Assembly (NCBI GenBank): GCA_018238625.1
Contig: JABCSY010000057.1
Span: 1-24,908 of the forward strand
Direction: 5' to 3'
DNA: 24,908 nt
DNA from: Promethearchaeota archaeon
GTDB lineage: Archaea; Asgardarchaeota; Lokiarchaeia; Sigyniarchaeales; SOKP01
Position 1 is the stretch's first letter; every line of letters starts with the position of its first letter. The notes beneath the pieces were generated by a model that had not been told where the DNA came from, made no database searches, and saw nothing but the letters and a program-made list of their open reading frames with translations. The position numbers and the translations under genes were made by a program. This document shows, in pieces, positions 510 through 24,326 of this stretch.

Positions 510-1424
510 TTATTTCATTGGAACTAAAGGCGAGATTCGCTCGATAAAAAATACAGGGTTAGCAGTTTTTATATCATTAGTATATTTAAGATGCGCGTAG
601 ATTCTACTTTTTTTTACGGACTTTTCGTAAATTTGTATCTGACCAGTACTTAATCTTTTAAATATCGTTATTTTTAATCTAATGAGGTAATACTGAAGTA
701 TACATGAAAAAAGGTTTGCGGCTAATTTAGTTAAAATGATGTTCGAAGCACCAAATTTACGATCGTACACTTTAATGGGGCATTCTTTAATTCTAAATCC
801 TTTTAGTGTAGCTTTAATTATCTGTTCGGTGCAAAAAGCGTATCCTTCGTATTTAACTTCGTCAAAAATAGGAATTATTTTTCGATTGAAAGCTCTAAAG
901 CCATTTTGATTATTCATAATCCTTTTTCCAAAGAAGATTAGAATTAATTTTTCGATAAGAACTTCACCTAATCTTGTCGAAACGGGTAATTTATAGAAAT
1001 AAGACCCTAAATATCTCGAGCCAATTGTATAATCGGCTTCGTTATCAAATACGGGTTTAACCATCGTCAAGATGTCGTATGGACTGTGCTGCCCATCAGA
1101 ATCCATTGTAACGATTACTCTGCCACGAGCGCGTTTTATTCCTGAAAGGATCGAAGCGCCATATCCTTTGTTTATTTTGTGATGTATTACTTCAATTTCA
1201 TTGTTTTCGTTTACCATTTCGATTTCTTGTAAACTGTTGTCTGTGGAATGATCATCAACAACGATTATTTGAATTGAATTTTCTCTAGGTAAATTTCCTA
1301 AAACTTTCCCGATTGTATGTTCTTCGTTATACATTGGTAATACGATTGTTAAAAGAACTTCATTATTATTGGTTTTGAAATTACTAATGTAATCGTACAA
1401 CTCAAGAAAGGGGTCGTCGCTCAT
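510..1424 (-). CDS. GT2 glycosyltransferase, DPM1/polyprenol-phosphate glycosyltransferase-like
   Basis: PMYNEE, VVDDHSTD, NKGYG, MDSDGQH (DxD), GSRY and GFRAF motifs. Confidence 0.92.
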   Translation of the reverse strand: MSDDPFLELYDYISNFKTNNNEVLLTIVLPMYNEEHTIGKVLGNLPRENSIQIIVVDDHSTDNSLQEIEMVNENNEIEVIHHKINKGYGASILSGIKRARGRVIVTMDSDGQHSPYDILTMVKPVFDNEADYTIGSRYLGSYFYKLPVSTRLGEVLIEKLILIFFGKRIMNNQNGFRAFNRKIIPIFDEVKYEGYAFCTEQIIKATLKGFRIKECPIKVYDRKFGASNIILTKLAANLFSCILQYYLIRLKITIFKRLSTGQIQIYEKSVKKSRIYAHLKYTNDIKTANPVFFIERISPLVPMK

Positions 1425-5836: not shown

Positions 5837-6328
5837 ATGAGCCAAATTAATTACGACAAAATTATCTCACAATTGAAAACGGAGTTAAATTCTGAATGTG
5901 CAATAGCAAGCAGATATGGAATTATATTAGGATCGACTATAAAAGGATTTGCTAAAGGAAAAGTTATCCCTCATAAAATCCTTTCGGTTATCGCTAATTC
6001 GAAAGACATAGCTGACGAATTGAATTTAGCTAAAATAAATTCCTTTGCGTTAGAGGCTCAAGAGTATAACTACCTTTTTACATTCACGACCGAATTAATT
6101 TTGATATCAAAGTTAAGCTTAGATATGAATTTGGCAAAGTACATGCCCAGTATTAGCGTGTTTTTGAAGAAATTGAGCGAGAGTTTTACGGCTCAAGAAA
6201 TAAGCGATTTTTCAGTTTTTGATTTTTCTAAAGAAATTCAAAAAATTGAAGAAACTTTTAAGAAAAAGAAAGGAAAAGATAAGAAATATTCAATAATTAA
6301 AGATCTTGTGAAATATGTAGCGAAATAA
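5837..6328 (+). CDS. Roadblock/LC7-like small protein
   Basis: Helix followed by CAIASRYGIILGSTI (roadblock-like beta hairpin), small size, directly upstream of a small-GTPase gene. Confidence 0.6.
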   Translation: MSQINYDKIISQLKTELNSECAIASRYGIILGSTIKGFAKGKVIPHKILSVIANSKDIADELNLAKINSFALEAQEYNYLFTFTTELILISKLSLDMNLAKYMPSISVFLKKLSESFTAQEISDFSVFDFSKEIQKIEETFKKKKGKDKKYSIIKDLVKYVAK

Positions 6329-6367
6329 AGAAGTTTTTATGTATAAATAATTAATTTAGTATGTATT

Positions 6368-6373
6368 AGGTGA
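6368..6373 (+). promoter_or_regulatory. Shine-Dalgarno-like motif AGGTGA
   Basis: Archaeal SD consensus (GGTGA) 3-6 nt before in-frame ATT/ATC codons of the GTPase gene. Confidence 0.55.
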
Positions 6374-6376
6374 AAT

Positions 6377-8494
6377 ATTATCTTAAGAGCAGTTTATATT
6401 TATAATCAGGGTAAATTGTTATATCATCGGCATTTTGGAAAAGCCCTTAAGGATGACGTTTTCAATTCTTTAGTAGTAGATCTAATGAAGGAAGCTTTCG
6501 CTAAAAGAGGTAAAAGCGTAGAATATCACGATTACTACAAATACCGAATATCCTACATTACAAAAAAAGATTCGGAATTAATGTTTTTATTCGTTACAGG
6601 TTTAACTGATAATTTCGAGAATATCAAAAAAGAACTAATTAAATGCAAAAAAGAATTTTTAAACCTGTTTGAAGACCTACTAGATCATAAAATTGACGAT
6701 AAAACATTTGAAATATTCGATCCAACTATAGATGCGGTTCATAGAAATTTAAGACCAAAAATATCGCTCATAGGATTTTCTGGCGTTGGAAAAACTACGA
6801 TAACGCGACTAATTAAAGCAGAGGAAATCCCCATGCAACACATCCCAACTATTACTGGAGACATAGCTACAATTAAAATCGGGAAATTACATTTTCATTT
6901 GTGGGATTTTGCTGGACAAGAGCAATTTAGTTATTTGTGGAACAATTTTATTAAGGGAAGCGATGCTGTTTTATTAATCACCGATTCTAGTTTAGAGAAC
7001 GTAGAAAAAAGCAAGTTTTTCTTGGAACTAATAAAAGAACAAGCTCCTCAAGCACATACGTCTGTTATTGGCAATAAACAAGACCTAGACAATGCAATGA
7101 AACCAGAACAAATTGAAAAAATAATAGGATTAAAAACATATTCTATGATTGCTAAAGATAGCAACAATCGGGATAAAATGATAACTATTATTGCTGATGT
7201 ATTAGAAATGAGCGCTGAGGTTTCGCCTCTATTAAAACCATTACTGGAAAGAGATACATTTATGGAAGAAGCGGCAAAAGCATTGGAAAACGCAGAGTTT
7301 GGTAAAGCTGCTACATTTTTCGATAAAATTAGCTATTTATGTATAGAGCTAGGAGATGATTCTTTAGGCAAAGAATTTTATGAAAAATCTCAAAAAATTA
7401 AAAGTATGCTCCAAAAACTTAGCGCTCCTCAACCGGTACCTCAAGAAAAACCTAAAATCGCTGAATCGTCAGCACCATCAGAAGAGCCTACTAAACCCGT
7501 AGAGGAAATTAAAGTAAACAAGCCAATTATTCCTGAACCCAAAAAACTTGAAGAACAAGAAAAACCAAAGGTACCAATAGCTGTTCCCCCTCCTCCTCCT
7601 CCTCCTCCACCACCTCTTGGACCTTCTAAAATACCAGAAGCATCAAAAAACGAAATGGGTCTTAAAAAACCGTCTATACCGCCAGCGCCGAGAACAATAA
7701 AAAAGCCAAAGTTCATTGAAAAAACTGTTGTTCCTCCACATCCCGAAAAGTCAGCACCACCAAAAATTCCAAAAACTAAAGAACCAGAACCCGAAAAAGC
7801 GGGTTTTAAAAAAATCGAAGAAGAAAAAGAAACATCCGAACCTGAAGCGTTGATCAAGCCTAATATTCCACAAGAAAAAGTGGAATTAGCCTTAAACCCA
7901 GAAGACTTTATGGTAAAACCACGCCCGAAAACGGTAACAATTGTTCCTAAAGACGCTAAAAACAAATTAAGAACTTCGCCTTTTGCCCAAGTTACTAACC
8001 CAACGAAATCTAATATACCCGTTCCAGTTTCGCCAACAAAATTAATAAAAGCTAAACCACCTGGTAGTTTTACTCCAACTAAAAAAATTAATGCGCCTTC
8101 AAAAGATTTTGGTGTCCCGAAAGAGACTACGCACCCGCCTACTCCAGTTAGTCCAACAGAACTTATAAAACCTAAAGCTAAAGTTGCTGCAGTAACACCT
8201 TCAAAAACACTAAACATCGAGACCTCTACAACGACGCAAAAAACAGCGGAACCTACAGTTCAAGCTACTTCTACCGCGATTTCTATAGAACAAAAGGCCA
8301 ATTTAGAAAAATCTTTGATGGACTTAAAAATTAAAAAAGCTAATATTTCTAAGATGTCGTTGGACTTCGACATGAAAGAACTGACGGGAGAGATTACAAG
8401 CGAAGAACTTGAAGAGAAAAAGAGTAAAATGGAAGCGATCAAAGCAGACCTCAACCAACAAATTAAAGAATTGGAACAACTTTTAAAGGAATAA
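6377..8494 (+). CDS. Longin-like domain + Arf-like small GTPase + helical region + proline-rich linker + C-terminal coiled coil
   Basis: G1 GFSGVGKTT, G2 IPTI, G3 WDFAGQEQFSYLW (Arf-like), G4 NKQD. N-terminus (I)LRAVYIYNQGKLLYHRHF is longin beta1-beta2-like; the frame is open from 6374, upstream of the tracked TTG at 6416. Contains a P10 tract. Start coordinate uncertain. Confidence 0.85.
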   Translation: MILRAVYIYNQGKLLYHRHFGKALKDDVFNSLVVDLMKEAFAKRGKSVEYHDYYKYRISYITKKDSELMFLFVTGLTDNFENIKKELIKCKKEFLNLFEDLLDHKIDDKTFEIFDPTIDAVHRNLRPKISLIGFSGVGKTTITRLIKAEEIPMQHIPTITGDIATIKIGKLHFHLWDFAGQEQFSYLWNNFIKGSDAVLLITDSSLENVEKSKFFLELIKEQAPQAHTSVIGNKQDLDNAMKPEQIEKIIGLKTYSMIAKDSNNRDKMITIIADVLEMSAEVSPLLKPLLERDTFMEEAAKALENAEFGKAATFFDKISYLCIELGDDSLGKEFYEKSQKIKSMLQKLSAPQPVPQEKPKIAESSAPSEEPTKPVEEIKVNKPIIPEPKKLEEQEKPKVPIAVPPPPPPPPPPLGPSKIPEASKNEMGLKKPSIPPAPRTIKKPKFIEKTVVPPHPEKSAPPKIPKTKEPEPEKAGFKKIEEEKETSEPEALIKPNIPQEKVELALNPEDFMVKPRPKTVTIVPKDAKNKLRTSPFAQVTNPTKSNIPVPVSPTKLIKAKPPGSFTPTKKINAPSKDFGVPKETTHPPTPVSPTELIKPKAKVAAVTPSKTLNIETSTTTQKTAEPTVQATSTAISIEQKANLEKSLMDLKIKKANISKMSLDFDMKELTGEITSEELEEKKSKMEAIKADLNQQIKELEQLLKE
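7586..7615 (+). repeat. (CCN)10 triplet repeat encoding 10 prolines
   Basis: ccc (cct)6 cca cca cct, in frame. Confidence 0.95.
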
Positions 8495-10208: not shown

Positions 10209-10736
10209 TTATTGAGTTCTTTTCTCGATAATTCTACGAGTAAGCTCAGTAAAAGCCTCATCTACGTTAATACCTGTTTTAGCTGAGGTTTCAATGTATA
10301 TGCTACCCTCGCTTTCGGCTAACGCTCTCGCCTCGTCCCGATCGATAACTTCGCCAACATCCTTCAGTAGGTCGTGTTTATTTCCAATTAGTACAAACGG
10401 TATGTCTTGACCAGCAAACTGACGGATTTCTGTTAACCACTTTCTTACCTCAATGTAGGTTTGTTCTCTTGTTAAATCAAAAACTAGCAAAGCTCCTGCG
10501 GCGCCTTTATAAAATGTCGAACGTATGAACTCAAATCGTTGTTGTCCGCCGATATCCCATATTGAAAGGGTTGCAACTTCGCTGGGCTTGAACTCAACGT
10601 CTTTGGTTAGGATATCTACTCCAACGGTGAGCTTGTAGTTAGCCGCAAAACGATTCTTGATAAATCTCTGAACGAGACTTGTCTTTCCGACAGCGGCGGC
10701 GCCAGTTAGCAATACTTTTAATTTAAAACTTGACAT
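10209..10736 (-). CDS. Rab-like small GTPase (Ras superfamily)
   Basis: GAAAVGKTS, TVGVDI, WDIGGQQRF, FYKGAAGALLVFD, GNKHD, ETSAKTG. No C-terminal Cys prenylation motif. Confidence 0.95.
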   Translation of the reverse strand: MSSFKLKVLLTGAAAVGKTSLVQRFIKNRFAANYKLTVGVDILTKDVEFKPSEVATLSIWDIGGQQRFEFIRSTFYKGAAGALLVFDLTREQTYIEVRKWLTEIRQFAGQDIPFVLIGNKHDLLKDVGEVIDRDEARALAESEGSIYIETSAKTGINVDEAFTELTRRIIEKRTQ

Positions 10737-13153: not shown

Positions 13154-16100
13154 ATGGAGAATAATGAAGCGTTAGCTCAAGAAGCTGTAAGATACTTAAG
13201 CTTAGCCCAGAGATTTGAACAGGAAGGTCAAATAGAAAAGGCTATAGAACATTATGGGGTTGCTGCGGAATATCTTAAAAATAGCGGGTACTTGATGCAG
13301 AGAATTGATGAGATTTATTCTCGAATTGAGGAATTAAAAAGGTTCGTTAAGCAAGAGATTTTCTATCGCCAAGAGCATTCCAGAGCTCAAGTTGAACAAA
13401 TACAAGAACAAGCGTTTTCTTTATTAGATGGAGCTCAAAAATTAGAATCTGATGGATTTCTTGAAGACGCAATTGGCCAATATATGTCAGCAATTAAATT
13501 ATTGGTTCAATCCGGATGGACTGAAACTCAATTAGAGAATTTGAAGAGTAAAATATCTGTTCTCGCGGGAAATTTGGAACGGCAAAAAAGAATTCAAACA
13601 CAAAAAGTAATTGAACCTCAACAATTAGAAACTGAACCTCAACAATTAGAAACTGAGCCTCAGGTTGTTGGCGCGTTTGGCAAAAAGAAAATTGCTTCAA
13701 AAGCAGAAGAACTGAAAAGATATAGAGAAGCCAAACAACGAGAAGAACAGATTGAAACCGATGCTTTTGCGTTTATTGACAATGCAAAGTTTTTCGAAAA
13801 AGACAATAAATTTGATGAAGCGATAGAGAACTACGAAAATGCCATTGAACTATTAAACTTAATAGGATGGCAAACCCAGACGCAAAATATAGCGCTAATA
13901 GTTCAAAAATTAAGAAAGGACAAAAAAGAATTTGAAATGATTAAGACACAGAAGCCTTTAGAACGAAGATTAATAAAAGGGGAAGTTGAAATTAAAGGAT
14001 TCGATGAATTAGAGCTCGAAGAGTTTAAAAAGGACGAAGAAAAGATTCAAATAAACGCGTTCAACCTAATAGATATAGGAAAAAAGCTAGAGCGAGAAAA
14101 AAAATACGATAAAGCAATAGCTAAGTACGAAAAAGCAATAGAATTACTTAAATCCATAGAATGGGATTCTTACATTCAACCTGTCGTTAATTTTATTAAA
14201 AGCATAGAAGAGAAACAAAGATATGAGGAAAAAACTGAAAGTCTGAAACTAAAGAGAGAAACCGATTTAAAAAGTCTACAAGACAAAATCTTCTTAAAAG
14301 AAAGAGAAGAGATTGTACAAACAGCAAAAGAGTTAGAACAAAAAAGATTACAATTTGAACAAAAAAGAAGAAAAGAAACAAGAAAAGAGAACGAATTTTT
14401 CACGACTCTAGATAATGCCGATAAGATTTTAAAGGAAACTAACGATTTTAATAAATCTATTGTAGAATATCAAAAAGCTTTAGAACTTTTAAAAGGTTTA
14501 GGAGCGGGTTGGGGATCGTATGCGGGAACAATTAAAGCTACAATATCTAGTATCAACACACTAAAAGAAACTCAGATAGAGAAAGAATTGGAACAACAAA
14601 AGAAATCAGAGCGGCGAAGTAAAGCTGATCTAGAATTCCAACAACAAATATCAATAGAATTAGCAAAGGAACGAGAGAGTATTAAACAAAGGGCAATTGC
14701 GTTAGATTTAAAAAGAGACGAAATAGAATATAGAGAACAACGTAAAGACGCTGCTTTTAAGGCTTTAGAAGAAGCAGAAGAATACATAAATCAATCTAAG
14801 CTAGATAACGCGATATTAGCTTATCAAACGGCTGGTAACATATTTGCGGGCATCCACTGGGACGAAGAACTACATTTAATTGAAGACTCCATAAGAAATC
14901 TTGAAAGTAGGAAAAGAGAGCAATCCTTTAGGAAGCAAAAGGATTTACAGAGATCTATTGATAGATATAAAACAGAGCAATCGTTTCAGAAAAAAATATC
15001 CAAGCAATTACGAGAAGAGCGTGAGAGATTAAGTAAAAGAGAGATAAATATAAGAGAACGAGATGCAGAATTAGAACATCGAGAAAGGAGAAAGGAAGAA
15101 GCTTTTAAAGTGTTAGGCGAAGCGCAGAAGTTATTAGAAAAAGGAAATTACGAAAAAGTTATAGAATTATATCAATTAGCAACAAATATTTTTGCAGAAA
15201 TTCAATGGTATGATGAAGTTGAAAAAATAGGAAATGCTATTGTTGAGATAGAAAATAAAAAGCATGAGACTATAATTAAAAAGCAAAGGGAAACCTTAGC
15301 TCTCATTGAAAAAGAAAGAGAGGATAGAGCGTTCCAAGAGAGTACAATTAAAGAAATGAAAGCTCAAAGAGAAAAGCTAAAACAAAAAGAGATTATCTTC
15401 AGAGAACGCGAAAACGAAGTCCTGTTTAGAGAAAAGCGAAAAGAAGAAGCTTTTAAAATACTAGAAGAAGCGCAGAATTTTCTTTCTTTAGGGGAGTTTG
15501 ATATGGCAATTGAAAGCTATAGAAATGTAAGCGAAATCTTTGCTCAAATTCAATGGGTAGAAGAACTACCGTTGATTAAACAAGCTATTAGCGATATAGA
15601 AATAAAAAAGAAAGAGAAAGAACTATGGAAACAAAAAGCGTTTCAAGAAGCGATAAAAAAAGAAACAGATAACAGGCAATTTCTTGACCACATCAAACGT
15701 CAACGAGAAATTGAAAAAATTAAAATACAAAAAAAGAAGGAATTATTTGTAGAAAAGAAAGAATTAATTGCAGAAACCGTATCAAAAGAGAAAGAGGCAT
15801 TCAGGATTATTGACGAAGCTGACATTTTATTAAGACAAGAAAGCTTTGACGAAGCTTTACGATCTTATGATAACGCTCTTAGCTTATTAAATCACATTGG
15901 ATGGACAGGGAGTTATATGACCTTATTAGAAGATACGATTCGATTAATCCAGTTTAAAAAGAAAGAAAAAGATCAGAGAATTAAACGAGAAAAGGAACAT
16001 TTAAAAAAACAAATAGACGACGAAAGAGATTTCGAGAGAAATATAGCTGAGCGTCTTCAAAGTGAAAAAGACAGGATGATATCGAAGAAAATTGAGCTTC

Positions 16101-18100
16101 GAAAAAGGGAAGATTTAGTAAAATATATGGAACTACGTAAATTAGAAGCTTTTAAAATTATGGATAAAGCAGAAACATTATTAAAGCAAGGGTTATATGA
16201 GCGCGCTATAGACATGTATTATCAAGCAGAGTTAATTTTAACTCAAATTCAATTCCCAACGGATACAATTAAAGAAATGATTCGTAAGGTTCAAGAGAAA
16301 AAGCGCAAAGATGATTTAGCAAAACAACACAAATTTGAGCTCACATTAAAAAAAACTGAGGAAGAAAAACATTTTCAACAAACTATTGTTGAAAGCATGA
16401 AGTACGAAGAAGAAAAAATGAAAGCGAAACAAATCAAACTTAAAGAACGAGAAGATTTAAAAATCTATATGGAAAAGCGTAAAGACATTGCCTTTGAAAT
16501 ATTTGATGAAGCCAATGCCTTTATAAAACAAGGAAAATACGATAAAGCGCTTGAATATTATAGAAGTGCGGAATTAATATTAAACGAAATCCAATTTCCA
16601 ACAGACTCAATTAAGGAATTAATCGCTAAAGTCAACGAGAAAAAACGAGAACATGAATTGCAAAAACAAAAAGGATTGGAATTTAAAGTTCAAAAGGAGC
16701 GCGAAGAAATCGAGTTTCAAAAGAAAGTTGCTGATGATATAAGAAAAAAAAAAGAGCGCCTAAAATTAAAACAGATCGAAGTTGGAAATTTAGAATTATT
16801 ACAAGCCAAACTTGAAAAGAGAAAAGATGAGGCTTTTCTGGTTTTAGAAAAAGCAGAGCATTATATTAATAGATTAGAGTATGATCTAGCTATTGTAAGC
16901 TATAGAAAAGCAATGCTAATTTTGAACGAAATCCAATTTCCAACAGATTCTATTAACAACATGATTGAAAAAGTAATCAATCTTAAAAAGCAAAAAGATC
17001 TTAACGAACAACATAAATTACAAAGAGAATTAGAAAGGCTTAAAGAAGAGAAACATTTACAAGAAATATTAGAAGAGAGAAAAAATCAAGAAAAAGAGAA
17101 AAAGATTGCGCAACAGTTAGCTCTTCAACAAAGGGAAAGAGTTGTGCAAGATCAATTAACTAACAGAGAGGCCGCTTATTCCCTCCTTGAAGAAGGTGTA
17201 GAATATCTTAAGAGAGGAGTTCCTAATTTTGACAAAGCAATATCGTTGTATATTCAAGCAAGAGATTTACTATCCGAAAAGATTGGTTGGGAACCTGAAA
17301 TTAATAATTTAAATCTATTGATAAAAGATCTCATTCAACAGAAAGCAGATTATGTGGAAAAGAAAAGATTGGAAGCAGAGACTAAAATTAAGAGGCAGCG
17401 AGAGTATGAAGTTTTTAGAGAAGAGATTCAAAAACAACGTATGGAATACGAAATAAAAAAAAGACAGCAACAACTAAAGGTAAAAAGATTATTCGAATCT
17501 AAACGAGATGCGGAGATAACTAAAGAGAAGGGTTTAAGGCTAATAGACGAGGGAAAACAGGCTGCAATCATATATGACTTTAAAGAAGCATATAAAAAGT
17601 TCAACGGAGCAATTGAAAAGTTTAAACAGATTGGATGGATTGAACAAATAAAATATATTCAAAAAGAGATTGAAAATACTCGACTCCTTGAACAAAGAAC
17701 AAAAGAAGAAGATTTGAAAATCCAAAAAATTCGCAAAGATTTAGAAATTCAAAGAAGAAAGAAAGAGCGCCAAGTAAAAGAAGAAGAAATAAAATTAAAA
17801 GCGGTAGTTGGAGAAGTTAGCGGTTTATCTGTTGAAATTTCGAAGTTAATTGAAATTAAAAAGCAAAAAGATGAGTTGAAAGCCCAACATAAAAGTAAAC
17901 AAATCGTATCCGAGTCAAAAGAATTTCGAAAGGATATGAGTGAATTTCTTGATTTGAAGCAGGATCTTATGAAAGAATTATCGAAATCAAAAGATGATAC
18001 AGAGAAGAGAAAAGAAAAGCTCAAATTAGATAAAGATAAAGAAAAAGCGGACGAAATTAAGAAAATGCTTAGGGAAATATCGAAAAAAGAAAAAAAATAA
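13154..18100 (+). CDS. Giant helical repeat protein: 14 MIT/TPR-like helical modules separated by E/K/R-rich helical linkers
   Basis: Motif AFxxLxxAxxxxxxxxYxxAIxxYxxAxxLLxxIxW/F recurs 14 times; central period about 116 aa (e.g. gct codons at 14753, 15101, 15449). Confidence 0.85.
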   Translation: MENNEALAQEAVRYLSLAQRFEQEGQIEKAIEHYGVAAEYLKNSGYLMQRIDEIYSRIEELKRFVKQEIFYRQEHSRAQVEQIQEQAFSLLDGAQKLESDGFLEDAIGQYMSAIKLLVQSGWTETQLENLKSKISVLAGNLERQKRIQTQKVIEPQQLETEPQQLETEPQVVGAFGKKKIASKAEELKRYREAKQREEQIETDAFAFIDNAKFFEKDNKFDEAIENYENAIELLNLIGWQTQTQNIALIVQKLRKDKKEFEMIKTQKPLERRLIKGEVEIKGFDELELEEFKKDEEKIQINAFNLIDIGKKLEREKKYDKAIAKYEKAIELLKSIEWDSYIQPVVNFIKSIEEKQRYEEKTESLKLKRETDLKSLQDKIFLKEREEIVQTAKELEQKRLQFEQKRRKETRKENEFFTTLDNADKILKETNDFNKSIVEYQKALELLKGLGAGWGSYAGTIKATISSINTLKETQIEKELEQQKKSERRSKADLEFQQQISIELAKERESIKQRAIALDLKRDEIEYREQRKDAAFKALEEAEEYINQSKLDNAILAYQTAGNIFAGIHWDEELHLIEDSIRNLESRKREQSFRKQKDLQRSIDRYKTEQSFQKKISKQLREERERLSKREINIRERDAELEHRERRKEEAFKVLGEAQKLLEKGNYEKVIELYQLATNIFAEIQWYDEVEKIGNAIVEIENKKHETIIKKQRETLALIEKEREDRAFQESTIKEMKAQREKLKQKEIIFRERENEVLFREKRKEEAFKILEEAQNFLSLGEFDMAIESYRNVSEIFAQIQWVEELPLIKQAISDIEIKKKEKELWKQKAFQEAIKKETDNRQFLDHIKRQREIEKIKIQKKKELFVEKKELIAETVSKEKEAFRIIDEADILLRQESFDEALRSYDNALSLLNHIGWTGSYMTLLEDTIRLIQFKKKEKDQRIKREKEHLKKQIDDERDFERNIAERLQSEKDRMISKKIELRKREDLVKYMELRKLEAFKIMDKAETLLKQGLYERAIDMYYQAELILTQIQFPTDTIKEMIRKVQEKKRKDDLAKQHKFELTLKKTEEEKHFQQTIVESMKYEEEKMKAKQIKLKEREDLKIYMEKRKDIAFEIFDEANAFIKQGKYDKALEYYRSAELILNEIQFPTDSIKELIAKVNEKKREHELQKQKGLEFKVQKEREEIEFQKKVADDIRKKKERLKLKQIEVGNLELLQAKLEKRKDEAFLVLEKAEHYINRLEYDLAIVSYRKAMLILNEIQFPTDSINNMIEKVINLKKQKDLNEQHKLQRELERLKEEKHLQEILEERKNQEKEKKIAQQLALQQRERVVQDQLTNREAAYSLLEEGVEYLKRGVPNFDKAISLYIQARDLLSEKIGWEPEINNLNLLIKDLIQQKADYVEKKRLEAETKIKRQREYEVFREEIQKQRMEYEIKKRQQQLKVKRLFESKRDAEITKEKGLRLIDEGKQAAIIYDFKEAYKKFNGAIEKFKQIGWIEQIKYIQKEIENTRLLEQRTKEEDLKIQKIRKDLEIQRRKKERQVKEEEIKLKAVVGEVSGLSVEISKLIEIKKQKDELKAQHKSKQIVSESKEFRKDMSEFLDLKQDLMKELSKSKDDTEKRKEKLKLDKDKEKADEIKKMLREISKKEKK
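13613..13663 (+). repeat. 21-bp tandem repeat (about 2.4 copies) encoding EPQQLET
   Basis: gaacctcaacaattagaaact x2, followed by gagcctcag. Confidence 0.95.
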
Positions 18101-19720: not shown

Positions 19721-21298
19721 ATGACGGTAAACAAGGAAGATATCAAAAAATCGCGAATGTACGCGAGACAGCAATTAATTGACGGGTGGGACCAAGAGAT
19801 CGTTAGCAAAGGTTGCGTTATGATTGTTGGAGTTGGGGCTTTGGGTTGTGAAATAGCAAAAGACTTTGCCTTAATGGGAATTGGGAAAATAGTATTGGTA
19901 GATTTAGATACTATTGAAACGTCAAATCTTTCCCGTCAAATGTTGTTCAAGCCAGGCGATGAAGGTCGTCCTAAAGCAGAAGTAGCCGCAGAAAGGTTAA
20001 AGGAAATGAATCCTTTTTTAAACGTCGATTTTTACTTTGAAAAGCTCCAAAAATTAGAAATGTCGGTCTATGAAGAATGCGATGTTATTATTGCCGCTTT
20101 GGATAACTTTAACGCAAGGTTAGATTTGAATAAAATATCTTTAAGAATAAAAAAACCTATGGTAGAGGGAGGAACCGTAGGATTTGAAGGACACGTACAT
20201 ATTGTTATTCCAGAAGGTTCTGGTCTTCAATATAAAAAGAGAGAAATCGAGATCGAAAAAATTGTCGACAGTAAAATGTGGGAATTTGACAATCCGGAGT
20301 ACTTAGAAGCACAAAAGGAAATAGAGCAATTAGAATATTTAATTGATAGGTTAAAGCAAGAGAAACTTGAACCTTTTAGAAGATTAGTTAGAAAAAAAGT
20401 TGAAGAAGAATTTGATAAAAAATACGCTGGTAAAGTTTTGGATTTAACTCCTTGTTATCGTTGTATGGTTCCTATTCCACCTGCAGACGATAAATTGGTC
20501 GCAGCGTGTACTCTAAAAGGACTTCCTAGAAATAGGAATCACTGCGTTATAAAAGCAGAAGTACTATTCGAAAAAGAATACGGCTTTAAACCTGATATGA
20601 ACGTGGACGATGACGTAGTAAAACTGAAGGTTTTTGCTCAGAAAGAATTGATAGACTTAAGAAAGAGAGTGTTTGACGAAAATGTTTCTCCCGAAAAGTT
20701 AGAAAGCTTATCTCCTGAAGAAATTCAAGAATGGAAAGATAATATTAAAGATACTTTCGGATCTGATTATAAGTTCGAAGAAATGGAAAATATATTAGGG
20801 AATAAAATTGCAGCAATTCAATCCGTAAGTTCTATTATTTCTAGCATACAATCCCAAGAAGCGTTAAAATTGTTATTTCGAATGCATGGAAGAAATATTG
20901 GTCCTCCAATGGACCCTCCTTACATCAATTATAATGGGGTGTATGGACAATTCGACCATTTAGAGGTAATTAAAAGGGAAGATTGCCTTGCTTGTGGAGA
21001 CATTGAAGGAGAAGAAAATGTTCAAATCGTTGTCCCATTTGACGCAAACGTAGGTTATATTTTCAAAGCTATGAGAATAAGCGGGCATAATTTAGAACCT
21101 ATCCTATGGTTGATTACTAATGCAGTGAACAAAGATATGCTTTGGAATCCTTACATGAGCGGTGAGTTTAAAGACCCAACTATAAAATTGACAGCTCTAA
21201 AAATCAAAAATAACGATATTCTTACTCTCACTCCTCTAGGAAAGGCAAAAGTAGAATCAGAGATTAAAAAATACAATGTCGTAATTACCTACATGTAA
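19721..21298 (+). CDS. Ubiquitin-like activating enzyme E1 (ThiF family, Uba2/Uba3-like)
   Basis: YARQ, GVGALG, DLDTIETSNLSRQMLF, ALDNFNAR; Zn motifs CYRC and CLAC; catalytic-Cys region AACTLKGLPRNRNHC (Cys codon 20507-20509); C-terminal extension compatible with a ubiquitin-fold domain. Confidence 0.92.
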   Translation: MTVNKEDIKKSRMYARQQLIDGWDQEIVSKGCVMIVGVGALGCEIAKDFALMGIGKIVLVDLDTIETSNLSRQMLFKPGDEGRPKAEVAAERLKEMNPFLNVDFYFEKLQKLEMSVYEECDVIIAALDNFNARLDLNKISLRIKKPMVEGGTVGFEGHVHIVIPEGSGLQYKKREIEIEKIVDSKMWEFDNPEYLEAQKEIEQLEYLIDRLKQEKLEPFRRLVRKKVEEEFDKKYAGKVLDLTPCYRCMVPIPPADDKLVAACTLKGLPRNRNHCVIKAEVLFEKEYGFKPDMNVDDDVVKLKVFAQKELIDLRKRVFDENVSPEKLESLSPEEIQEWKDNIKDTFGSDYKFEEMENILGNKIAAIQSVSSIISSIQSQEALKLLFRMHGRNIGPPMDPPYINYNGVYGQFDHLEVIKREDCLACGDIEGEENVQIVVPFDANVGYIFKAMRISGHNLEPILWLITNAVNKDMLWNPYMSGEFKDPTIKLTALKIKNNDILTLTPLGKAKVESEIKKYNVVITYM

Positions 21299-23487: not shown

Positions 23488-23759
23488 TCAAAAATTAATT
23501 ATTTGCTTTAATCCAGTTAGTTTTATAAATATTTTTGTTATAAAAATTGAAGAAATAATCTTAATATCACTCTATTATTGATTAGTCTCAAAAAATAAGG
23601 GATAAATTTTTAAAAAGAAAATTAGACACAGATATGAATTGGTTAGAGATTAAGAGCTTTCTCTTAACAAAGAAATTACCTTAATATCCATTATATAGGT
23701 GAATTATTTTTTACCCTATTTAAATGTTTAAAGTAGGTTATTCTATAAAAAATAAGATT

Positions 23760-23778: not shown

Positions 23779-24326
23779 TTAATCCATGGCGTATTTTTTT
23801 GTCCAAGAGGCTGCTTTAGCTTGAAACTTTTTTAGAGCTCTAAAGTATTGTTCCCCTGCTTCATGGTTCAAAGGATCTCCTGGATTAAAAAAGGGCGGTT
23901 TTACGCATTATTACAAAGTGTAATTAATTCTACGTGCATCATGCCCTTTAAAGCCTCTATTATATTAGTTAGAGTCTTGCTCGGAGTCCAACCTGACGCC
24001 CCTGTCGAAGCGTCCACCTTTCCTACTAAATCGGGATTAATTAAATCTAAACAAATATTAAGCTTCCCGGGAGGTATGCTACTATCGATGTTTGGATGCC
24101 ACATCAATGTGACTGCGTAAGCGTAGGGAGGGGCAAACGGGTAATTCTCAGGGAACTTAATTTCGAAAATAAACTTTCCTTTATAATAAGGCGTTCCGTC
24201 TTTTCCGATGATTGTAAGCCGAAGGTGATCGATACTACGACCCCATGGTTCGATGATTATGTTACTATCGTCTTTGTACGATTCGATGGCTTCAGTATAA
24301 TCAGTTTCTTCTCTCATAATACTCAC
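23779..24326 (-). CDS. Ubiquitin-conjugating enzyme E2, split gene: join(complement 23930..24326, 23779..23900), 172 aa from GTG (169 aa from ATG 24317)
   Basis: GTPY..G.F..EIKFPENYPFAPP, HPNI, catalytic ICLDLI, GWTPS. After removing 23901-23929 the frame continues HVE-PPFFNPGDPLNHEAGEQYFRALKKFQAKAASWTKKYAMD*, the canonical E2 C-terminus (DPLN.EA...W...YA). Confidence 0.93.
23901..23929 (-). other. Putative 29-nt bulge-helix-bulge/loop (tRNA-type) intron in E2 mRNA
   Basis: Intron AAUUAAUUACACUUUGUAAUAAUGCGUAA. 4-bp helix ACGU/GCGU, 3-nt bulge AG^A, second site AA^A, inner stem AUU-AUUACA/UGUAAU-AAU, outer exon-exon stem AAAGGGC/GCCCUUU. Excision restores the reading frame. Confidence 0.8.

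Follow-up and report, generated by a model that had tools for sequence, protein, structure and literature searches.

The window (the whole stretch of Promethearchaeota archaeon DNA that was analysed, 24,908 nt long) carries on its minus strand a UQ_con-type E2 gene that is interrupted by a 29-nt hairpin (Table 1). As it stands, the minus-strand ORF 24326-23901 is a UQ_con E2 with an early stop; its frame joins a 39-codon tail once the 29 nt at 23929-23901 are deleted (the excision register is ambiguous by 2 nt, the alternative being 23927-23899). In most relatives this exon 2 tail is contiguous with exon 1, with no gap, and in alignments it corresponds to the C-terminal portion of solved E2 structures (1fxt, for example), in agreement with a first-pass annotation which had held that the missing tail comprises the C-terminal helices and that the truncated product keeps its catalytic Cys (codon 24053-24051, in exon 1). 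The same annotation had described an intron whose length is not a multiple of 3 and whose last three nucleotides are an in-frame UAA, and the frame analysis bears this out for the 29-nt insert. The insert is real: contigs from three studies (runs X2, X3 and X20) cross it with zero gaps (31, 1 and 10 letters differing from the window, respectively; one of these runs may be the window's own source), which rules out an assembly error as its origin. Separate translation of exon 2 was considered and rejected, its frame having no start codon ahead of the conserved part.

Because 22 of 100 distinct E2 alleles have a stop within codons 1–3 (counted from GTG 24326), we prefer ATG 24317 as the probable E2 start; the alternative GTG 24326 overlaps an SD-like GTGAG, and codon 4 is ATG, ATC, ATT, GTG or TTG in 96/100 alleles. 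A start at ATG 24317 would give E2 products of 138 aa unspliced and 169 aa spliced, such that the truncation anticipated by the first-pass annotation stands and its lengths of 141 and 172 aa are likely to be wrong. ATC or ATT occupies the likely start codon in 49/100 alleles (about half of the relatives). An unbroken E2 paralog is present on contig C50 of the window's own genome (designated G000, other G-numbers being relatives); a search of that genome returned no second copy of the 29-nt intron sequence. An Rfam search of the region yielded a chance match only, and a promoter and terminator scan stayed at background level. Near E2, eukaryote-like genes occupy window positions 5837-8494, 10209-10736 and 13154-18100: an Arf/Roc-type GTPase with a proline-rich tail, a Rab-like GTPase and a 1648-aa MIT/TPR repeat protein.

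Table 1. Features of the interrupted E2 locus and of interrupted genes elsewhere (window positions unless a contig or locus is named).
Feature	Position	Strand	Remarks
E2 (UQ_con) exon 1	23930..24317	-	PF00179, E 2.8e-20; HPN motif and catalytic Cys inside
Catalytic Cys codon	24051..24053	-	alignment to 1fxt; within exon 1
Exon-exon helix, 5′ arm (7 bp)	23943..23949	-	pairing comparison
Central helix, 5′ strand (4 bp, ACGU)	23932..23935	-	followed by 3-nt bulge with 5′ cut
29-nt AU-rich hairpin intron (probable)	23901..23929	-	3′ end GCGU-AA; final 3 bases are the in-frame TAA
Central helix, 3′ strand (GCGU)	23903..23906	-	pairing comparison
Exon-exon helix, 3′ arm	23890..23896	-	uses Pro CCG codon
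E2 exon 2	23779..23900	-	39 full codons and stop; PN/DPLN loop, C-terminal helices
Remnant of GIY-YIG homing-endonuclease-like gene	23604..23684	+	last ~27 codons; E 7.2e-6, 81% identity
E1-like ThiF-family gene (context)	19721..21298	+	PF00899, E 2.2e-55
PIG-P-like small membrane-protein loci	L199, L200, L201, L236-L243; own copy G000:C123:29801-30118		
Interrupted histone-fold genes	L097 ~644 (G023); L295, L297, L298, L299		
Own NifU-like insert	G000:C11 ~770-800	-	L263; 31-nt BHB starting TAA, just after CxxC motif

At the 5′ site the insert presents a strict 3-nt bulge (AGA) adjoining the 4-bp central helix (ACGU/GCGU), and each junction lies 2 nt 3′ of a strand of this helix. The 3′ site is a 7x6 internal loop closed by the 7-bp exon-exon helix, and is hence the relaxed bulge-helix-loop, rather than strict BHB, that the first-pass annotation had recognized. 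Folding of the single sequence gives a weak signal (z = -2.0, with 12/200 shuffles equally stable and the BHB-register conformer 0.6 kcal/mol above the minimum-energy fold), and it is the comparison across alleles that makes the case a strong one. Central-helix pairing is seen in 9/9 alleles interrupted at this site, formed each time from 4 nt of exon and 4 nt of intron that end 2 nt before their junctions. Across the alignment of these nine alleles a 14-pair structure is paired in 99.2% of 126 cells, with two-sided changes in 7/14 pairs; this level is reached by 0/500 shuffles and compares with 40–68% in slid controls, over which the structure has the advantage of having been derived from the same nine sequences. 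The exon-exon helix is complete (7/7) in 9/9 intron alleles versus 7/91 others, and 8/9 intron alleles, versus 0/91 alleles without this intron, have the Pro codon CCG by which it is completed. The covariation of the helices shows exon codons to form part of the pre-mRNA bulge-helix-loop. When all E2 inserts are taken together, the exact cut register of the 4-bp helix recurs in 20/22, and 4/4 central-helix pairing is found in 20 of the 21 scored (2000 shuffles gave a mean of 1.6 and at most 6), the 22nd (C91 nt-389) having been removed by a filter and left unscored (1/4 of its pairs form, or 4 if a base is bulged). In nuclease-linked alleles (described below), the insert at nt 389 makes 1/4 pairs in strict register (4 bp with one base bulged), and is in-frame without a stop.

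The enzymes that would be needed to remove such an insert are encoded in the window's own genome. Determining the EndA subunit type and the presence of RtcB, as the first-pass annotation had proposed, brought to light an EndA α subunit with a CSL loop, a β-like subunit without the catalytic His, RtcB and archease; the best PDB match of the α subunit is 3p1z_B, in an alignment that runs through the specificity (CSL) loop, and by sequence the EndA is of the broad-specificity type. According to the accessible text of PMC5829648, Asgard archaea have the EndA type with a CSL loop, and this loop is tied to relaxed motifs. An exon-joined form is absent from the contigs of X1, X2, X3 and X20 (contigs being silent on expression); the X20 contig retains the insert and its run, labeled RNA-Seq, was judged to be probably DNA. 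The 29-nt insert is, in our view, very probably a spliced tRNA-type intron, and its character looks that of a selfish passenger rather than of a stress switch. In the same genome ARAGORN returned 37 tRNA hits only, many of them spurious, which fits heavily interrupted tRNA genes.

Interruption of this gene is the exception. Among 161 genomes of the class an E2 ortholog was found in 135 (and in 39/40 high-quality genomes), and an insert of 29–32 nt at exactly this phase-1 site in nine of the 135, spread over five genera and scattered over the gene tree; the positional conservation across the lineage that the first-pass annotation had suggested checking is thus not seen. Over the whole gene we count 22 inserts at six positions in 17 alleles (16 genomes plus a co-binned second copy on contig C91), with up to three per gene, and no insert in 119/135 genomes (~88%). 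All carriers belong to the window's family: E2 showed no break in 20 genomes outside it (judged by frame length and coordinates). Seven loci suspected of being interrupted (G061, G066, G074, G123, G155, G156 and G160) showed no insert. The length is a multiple of 3 in 3/9 inserts at this site and in 12/22 over the whole gene, and most E2 inserts split a codon. An in-frame stop lies within 20/22, a count to be read with the bias of insert detection toward stop-bearing inserts; all nine at this site give one, such that unspliced RNA would always be truncated, and the tails of the truncated products differ among the nine alleles. Exon 2 is intact in 9/9 alleles and for every pair of them synonymous codon differences (8–22) outnumber replacements (2–10); on these comparisons it stays under purifying selection. 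E2 alleles with three inserts likewise keep every exon open.

Contig C91, binned with the window's genome, is syntenic with the window at 86–92% identity and carries a second, three-intron E2 copy. We set aside the reading of this copy as a paralog, in view of that synteny and identity; it probably derives from a co-binned sister population (contamination 7.6%). At ~22447 C91 has in addition a 32-nt, GC-richer hairpin insert, apparently outside long ORFs and absent from G016 and G026.

The nuclease remnant of the window stands tail-to-tail with E2, the remainder of the gene having been deleted there, and loose ends of the X1 and X20 contigs run on into the nuclease ORF at this point. (The surrounding region, window 23603-23745, is strain-variable, with X1 and X3 contigs differing in sequence.) On C91 the three-intron E2 adjoins, tail-to-tail, a 499-aa ORF, beyond which the E2 3′ end is present a second time; in G159, whose insert is at the window's site, an ORF 47% identical to it is arranged likewise, down to the repeated E2 3′ end. 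Tyr, Tyr, Gly, Glu and Asn columns are invariant in the nuclease family, in what we take to be the order of the GIY-YIG motif. A model of the nuclease core (pLDDT 71.5) has as its top structural match the I-TevI catalytic domain (Z 9.0, rmsd 2.3, 87/92 residues), with other GIY-YIG domains next. Foldseek also puts the GIY-YIG fold first for the core, without E-value significance, and Pfam calls GIY-YIG in 1/8 family members (E 0.051); no family name came from Pfam, PHROGs, a PDB profile search or a Foldseek search with the model of the whole protein, and an atlas match (0.84) serves as a lead only. Going by the modeled core, the E2-adjacent ORF has the homing-endonuclease fold and catalytic residues found in I-TevI.

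This nuclease keeps close company with interrupted E2 genes. A metagenome search with the ORF recovered seven loci, five of them with a whole tail-to-tail E2 and all five of these interrupted; the other two comprise one with an E2 fragment only and one without E2. Altogether, 8/8 nuclease- or remnant-linked E2 alleles (G000, the C91 copy, G159, L256, L257, L260, L261 and L262) are interrupted either at nt 389 or at nt 397, two sites within an 8-nt stretch, and never at both, over a background of 11/136 class-search E2 alleles with an insert at either position; five of the eight were recovered via the nuclease query and not the intron query, L256 and L257 are near-duplicates, and kin among the linked alleles are not independent. 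In eight of those 11 class-search alleles, neither a nuclease gene nor a coding remnant of one was found in the nearby DNA examined (G026 has at the nuclease position a 63-nt spacer only). The nuclease can be seen decaying in the window, L261 and L262, none of which is among those eight; such decay would explain intron alleles without this neighbor. The 3′ end of E2 seems to be an insertion hotspot. Homologs of the nuclease in G066, G093 and G094 adjoin genes with no insert seen. Two further arrangements were recorded: the same nuclease domain sits at the C-terminus of 1200–1360-aa proteins at L258, L259 and L203, one in a provirus-like setting, and at L083 (G015:C14:32686-32799) a duplicate of the E2 3′ part lies ~3 kb downstream of an intron-less E2 with two unrelated ORFs between.

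The evidence points to lateral spread of the E2 intron, because the histories of intron and exon, as reconstructed from these sequences, disagree. On the distal exon the nine carriers do not form one clade (monophyly rejected, p-AU 7e-15). Introns are 83% similar between G000 and G099 and 73% similar between G023 and G100, the genera differing within each pair, and on exon 1 (the distal exon) both groupings are rejected (p-AU 1.6e-7 and 0.004, respectively; the tree groups tested were named after the first tree seen). Around the intron, 22 codons are identical between G000 and G026, as against 29% differing elsewhere (permutation P 0.007), an identity that could partly reflect selection on RNA structure. 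That the adjoining GIY-YIG nuclease mobilized the intron is, in our judgment, likely.

Similar inserts occur in three other genes, for which only broken-looking loci were retrieved and the register is the best nearby slide: inserts of the same build in a PIG-P-like gene (a weak Pfam hit) in 11/147 genomes, at nt 248 and nt 274 with two each in G013 and G006; histone inserts in 5/109 genomes, at nt 166 (G023, G028, G144, G125 and G004); and NifU inserts in 6/114 genomes, the window's own included, with that of G109 at the own-genome site and those of G126, G108, G068 and G086 at nt 60. Three PIG-P-like alleles have a related GIY-YIG gene in tail-to-tail position, and 3/3 of them are interrupted; the nuclease was within 1.5 kb of 0/30 intact PIG-P-like loci. 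The own histone gene (C148:53480-53704) is intron-less, and a GIY-YIG-like ORF of 795 aa comes after it (Pfam E 0.06), as does a homolog of this ORF after the interrupted histone copy of G004. No nuclease was seen near the NifU inserts at the interrupted loci examined. Much hairpin sequence is common to the own NifU insert (L263) and the G023 histone insert (L097), a likeness that suggests copying between genes. The idea of a genome saturated with introns was rejected by a coding-insert census and a reference-free scan. Outside E2, BHB-like coding inserts numbered 1 per ~90 kb aligned for G023, none in ~140 kb for G016 (bar a weak repeat-region match on the own side) and one doubtful repeat-region match in ~40 kb for G026; the scan returned 17 candidates versus 12–20 in slid-register nulls and missed known inserts.

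The best explanation of these observations, to which we give a probability of roughly 0.65, is a constitutively spliced mini-intron that is spread by collaborative homing. The pre-mRNA would fold, partly from exon codons, into a relaxed bulge-helix-loop; heterotetrameric EndA would cut 2 nt 3′ of each central-helix strand; and RtcB with archease, both present in the genome, would ligate the exons into the full 169-aa E2, splicing being presumably a near-constitutive housekeeping toll that involves no sensor. At the DNA level, the intron would move laterally together with the free-standing GIY-YIG gene that is found tail-to-tail with E2, and which would duplicate the E2 3′ end upon insertion. 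In E2 genes without an intron the nuclease probably cleaves around codons 128–135, a target that an intron at gene nt 389 or 397 would break, protecting the donor, and repair would then copy intron, flanks and nuclease together (co-conversion). Later the nuclease may decay, as in the window, and the intron remain.

Several other readings were weighed against this one. An unspliced insertion that inactivates E2, its function covered by the C50 paralog, would be consistent with the unbroken state of that paralog and with contigs devoid of a joined form; the intact, synonymous-biased exon 2 of nine diverged alleles, the covarying pairing and the open exons of three-insert alleles all speak against it and make it highly improbable. 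Least probable of all is that translational bypassing (of the gene 60/byp type) or frameshifting replaces splicing, a thought prompted by the shortness of the hairpin insert and by its in-frame stop. Bypassing calls for matched take-off and landing codons and for a stop immediately after take-off; here take-off GAA and landing AAA mismatch, no stop comes right after take-off, most inserts split a codon, and covariation resides in an exon–intron helix that only a nuclease could read. The first-pass annotation had speculated about a regulated switch after the fashion of HAC1/XBP1, in which conditional splicing gates E2 output, and such a role could exist as a local exaptation in carriers. In-frame stops in 20/22 inserts are compatible with it, and the truncated E2 might fold, given that UEV domains are without the same C-terminal helices; the relaxed 3′ site needs a CSL-type EndA (PMC5829648, as far as its accessible text goes), and the available text of PMC2738675 records an earlier proposal that the cbf5 intron serves in down-regulation. 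Against this, about 88% of the genomes with the gene (119/135) are insert-free; the position (six sites), length and frame of the insert all vary (3/9 in-frame at this site, 12/22 over the gene); truncated tails are unconserved and detection favored stop-bearing inserts; unrelated genes are hit; and EndA is a housekeeping tRNA enzyme. HAC1/XBP1 and the E2 insert are alike in being short and non-spliceosomal, in the use of a tRNA ligase (RtcB in metazoans) and in the change of a C-terminus, and they differ in that the former has the IRE1 stress sensor, two 7-nt loops that IRE1 cuts and that the E2 motif does not resemble, cross-kingdom conservation and a transcription factor as product, such that, by what we could consult of PMC4891664, the ligase is all that the two have in common. 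The IRE1 RNase profile PF06479 was not found in the own genome and matched no control genome either. We consider a switch very unlikely.

A spliced intron without any tie to the nuclease (old and randomly kept or lost, or transposed at the RNA level, with the neighboring ORF a coincidence) shares the splicing half of our account and would be compatible with the nuclease-free surroundings of most intron alleles and of the NifU inserts, and with the alike hairpins of own NifU and G023 histone, which suggest gene-to-gene copying. It has to contend with the interruption of 8/8 nuclease-linked E2 alleles and 3/3 PIG-P-like alleles, with the conflict between intron and exon histories, and with CCG in 0/91 intron-less alleles, by which recent loss has left no footprint; we hold it to be unlikely, if less so than the readings above. 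To the collaborative-homing account belongs a broader claim, on which we are evenly divided: that free-standing GIY-YIG nucleases drive an ongoing invasion of E2, histone, NifU and PIG-P-like genes by EndA-spliced 30-nt introns within one Loki-type family, the introns (up to three per gene) serving as cleavage armor.

Known systems come close to this one in several respects. The BHB intron of crenarchaeal cbf5 pre-mRNA, which is cut between bulge residues 2 and 3 (Yokobori 2009, PMC2738675, in its accessible text), is likewise short (16–44 nt), ORF-less, located in coding sequence and often of relaxed motif, and resembles the E2 inserts in cut register, in a hetero-oligomeric EndA and in being sometimes in-frame. 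It differs, as far as the text consulted goes, in having one old position with losses and proof from cDNA; the E2 inserts occupy six positions, with up to three in one gene, are known from DNA, show a lateral spread that is patchy, and stand apart also through the nuclease linked to them and an Asgard ubiquitin-system host. Collaborative (trans) homing in phages, as set out in the available part of PMC2988022, similarly pairs an endonuclease-less intron with a free-standing homing endonuclease that acts some hundreds of bases off its own gene, the enzyme being a GIY-YIG of I-TevI type; there the intron is a self-splicing group I intron of a phage, whereas that of E2 would be a protein-spliced 30-nt hairpin in a cellular chromosome, with cleavage presumed. 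Asgard tRNA introns share motif, enzyme and repeated independent gains with the E2 inserts and, in the preprint that describes them (bioRxiv 10.64898/2026.10.13.758758), concern tRNA genes only, the word "mRNA" being absent from its main text; the part available to us reports that no general arrival route was found for them. The arrival of BHB introns is called an open problem in the consulted portions of both that preprint and PMC2738675. By the accessible text of PMC7714728, cbf5 is the only earlier archaeal mRNA BHB case, together with one in a 5′ UTR, and PMC12397907, so far as its text could be consulted, adds nothing on mRNA introns. Our literature search, through mostly open papers without their supplements, found no report of Asgard mRNA introns or of nuclease-moved BHB introns; the supplements of PMC2738675 or of the tRNA preprint may list further coding introns.

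If the account is true, this family would offer a living, testable model of how introns colonize eukaryote-like genes without a spliceosome, and the closest prokaryotic relatives of eukaryotes would have multi-intron protein genes, ubiquitin-system and histone genes among them. Interrupted genes of this kind will be labeled truncated or pseudogenes by gene callers. The link to a nuclease would provide introns with an arrival route, at least in mRNA, and a candidate mobilizer whose predicted target is a few codons wide makes intron gain testable in vitro. The case may thus show how introns enter protein genes in the closest relatives of eukaryotes.
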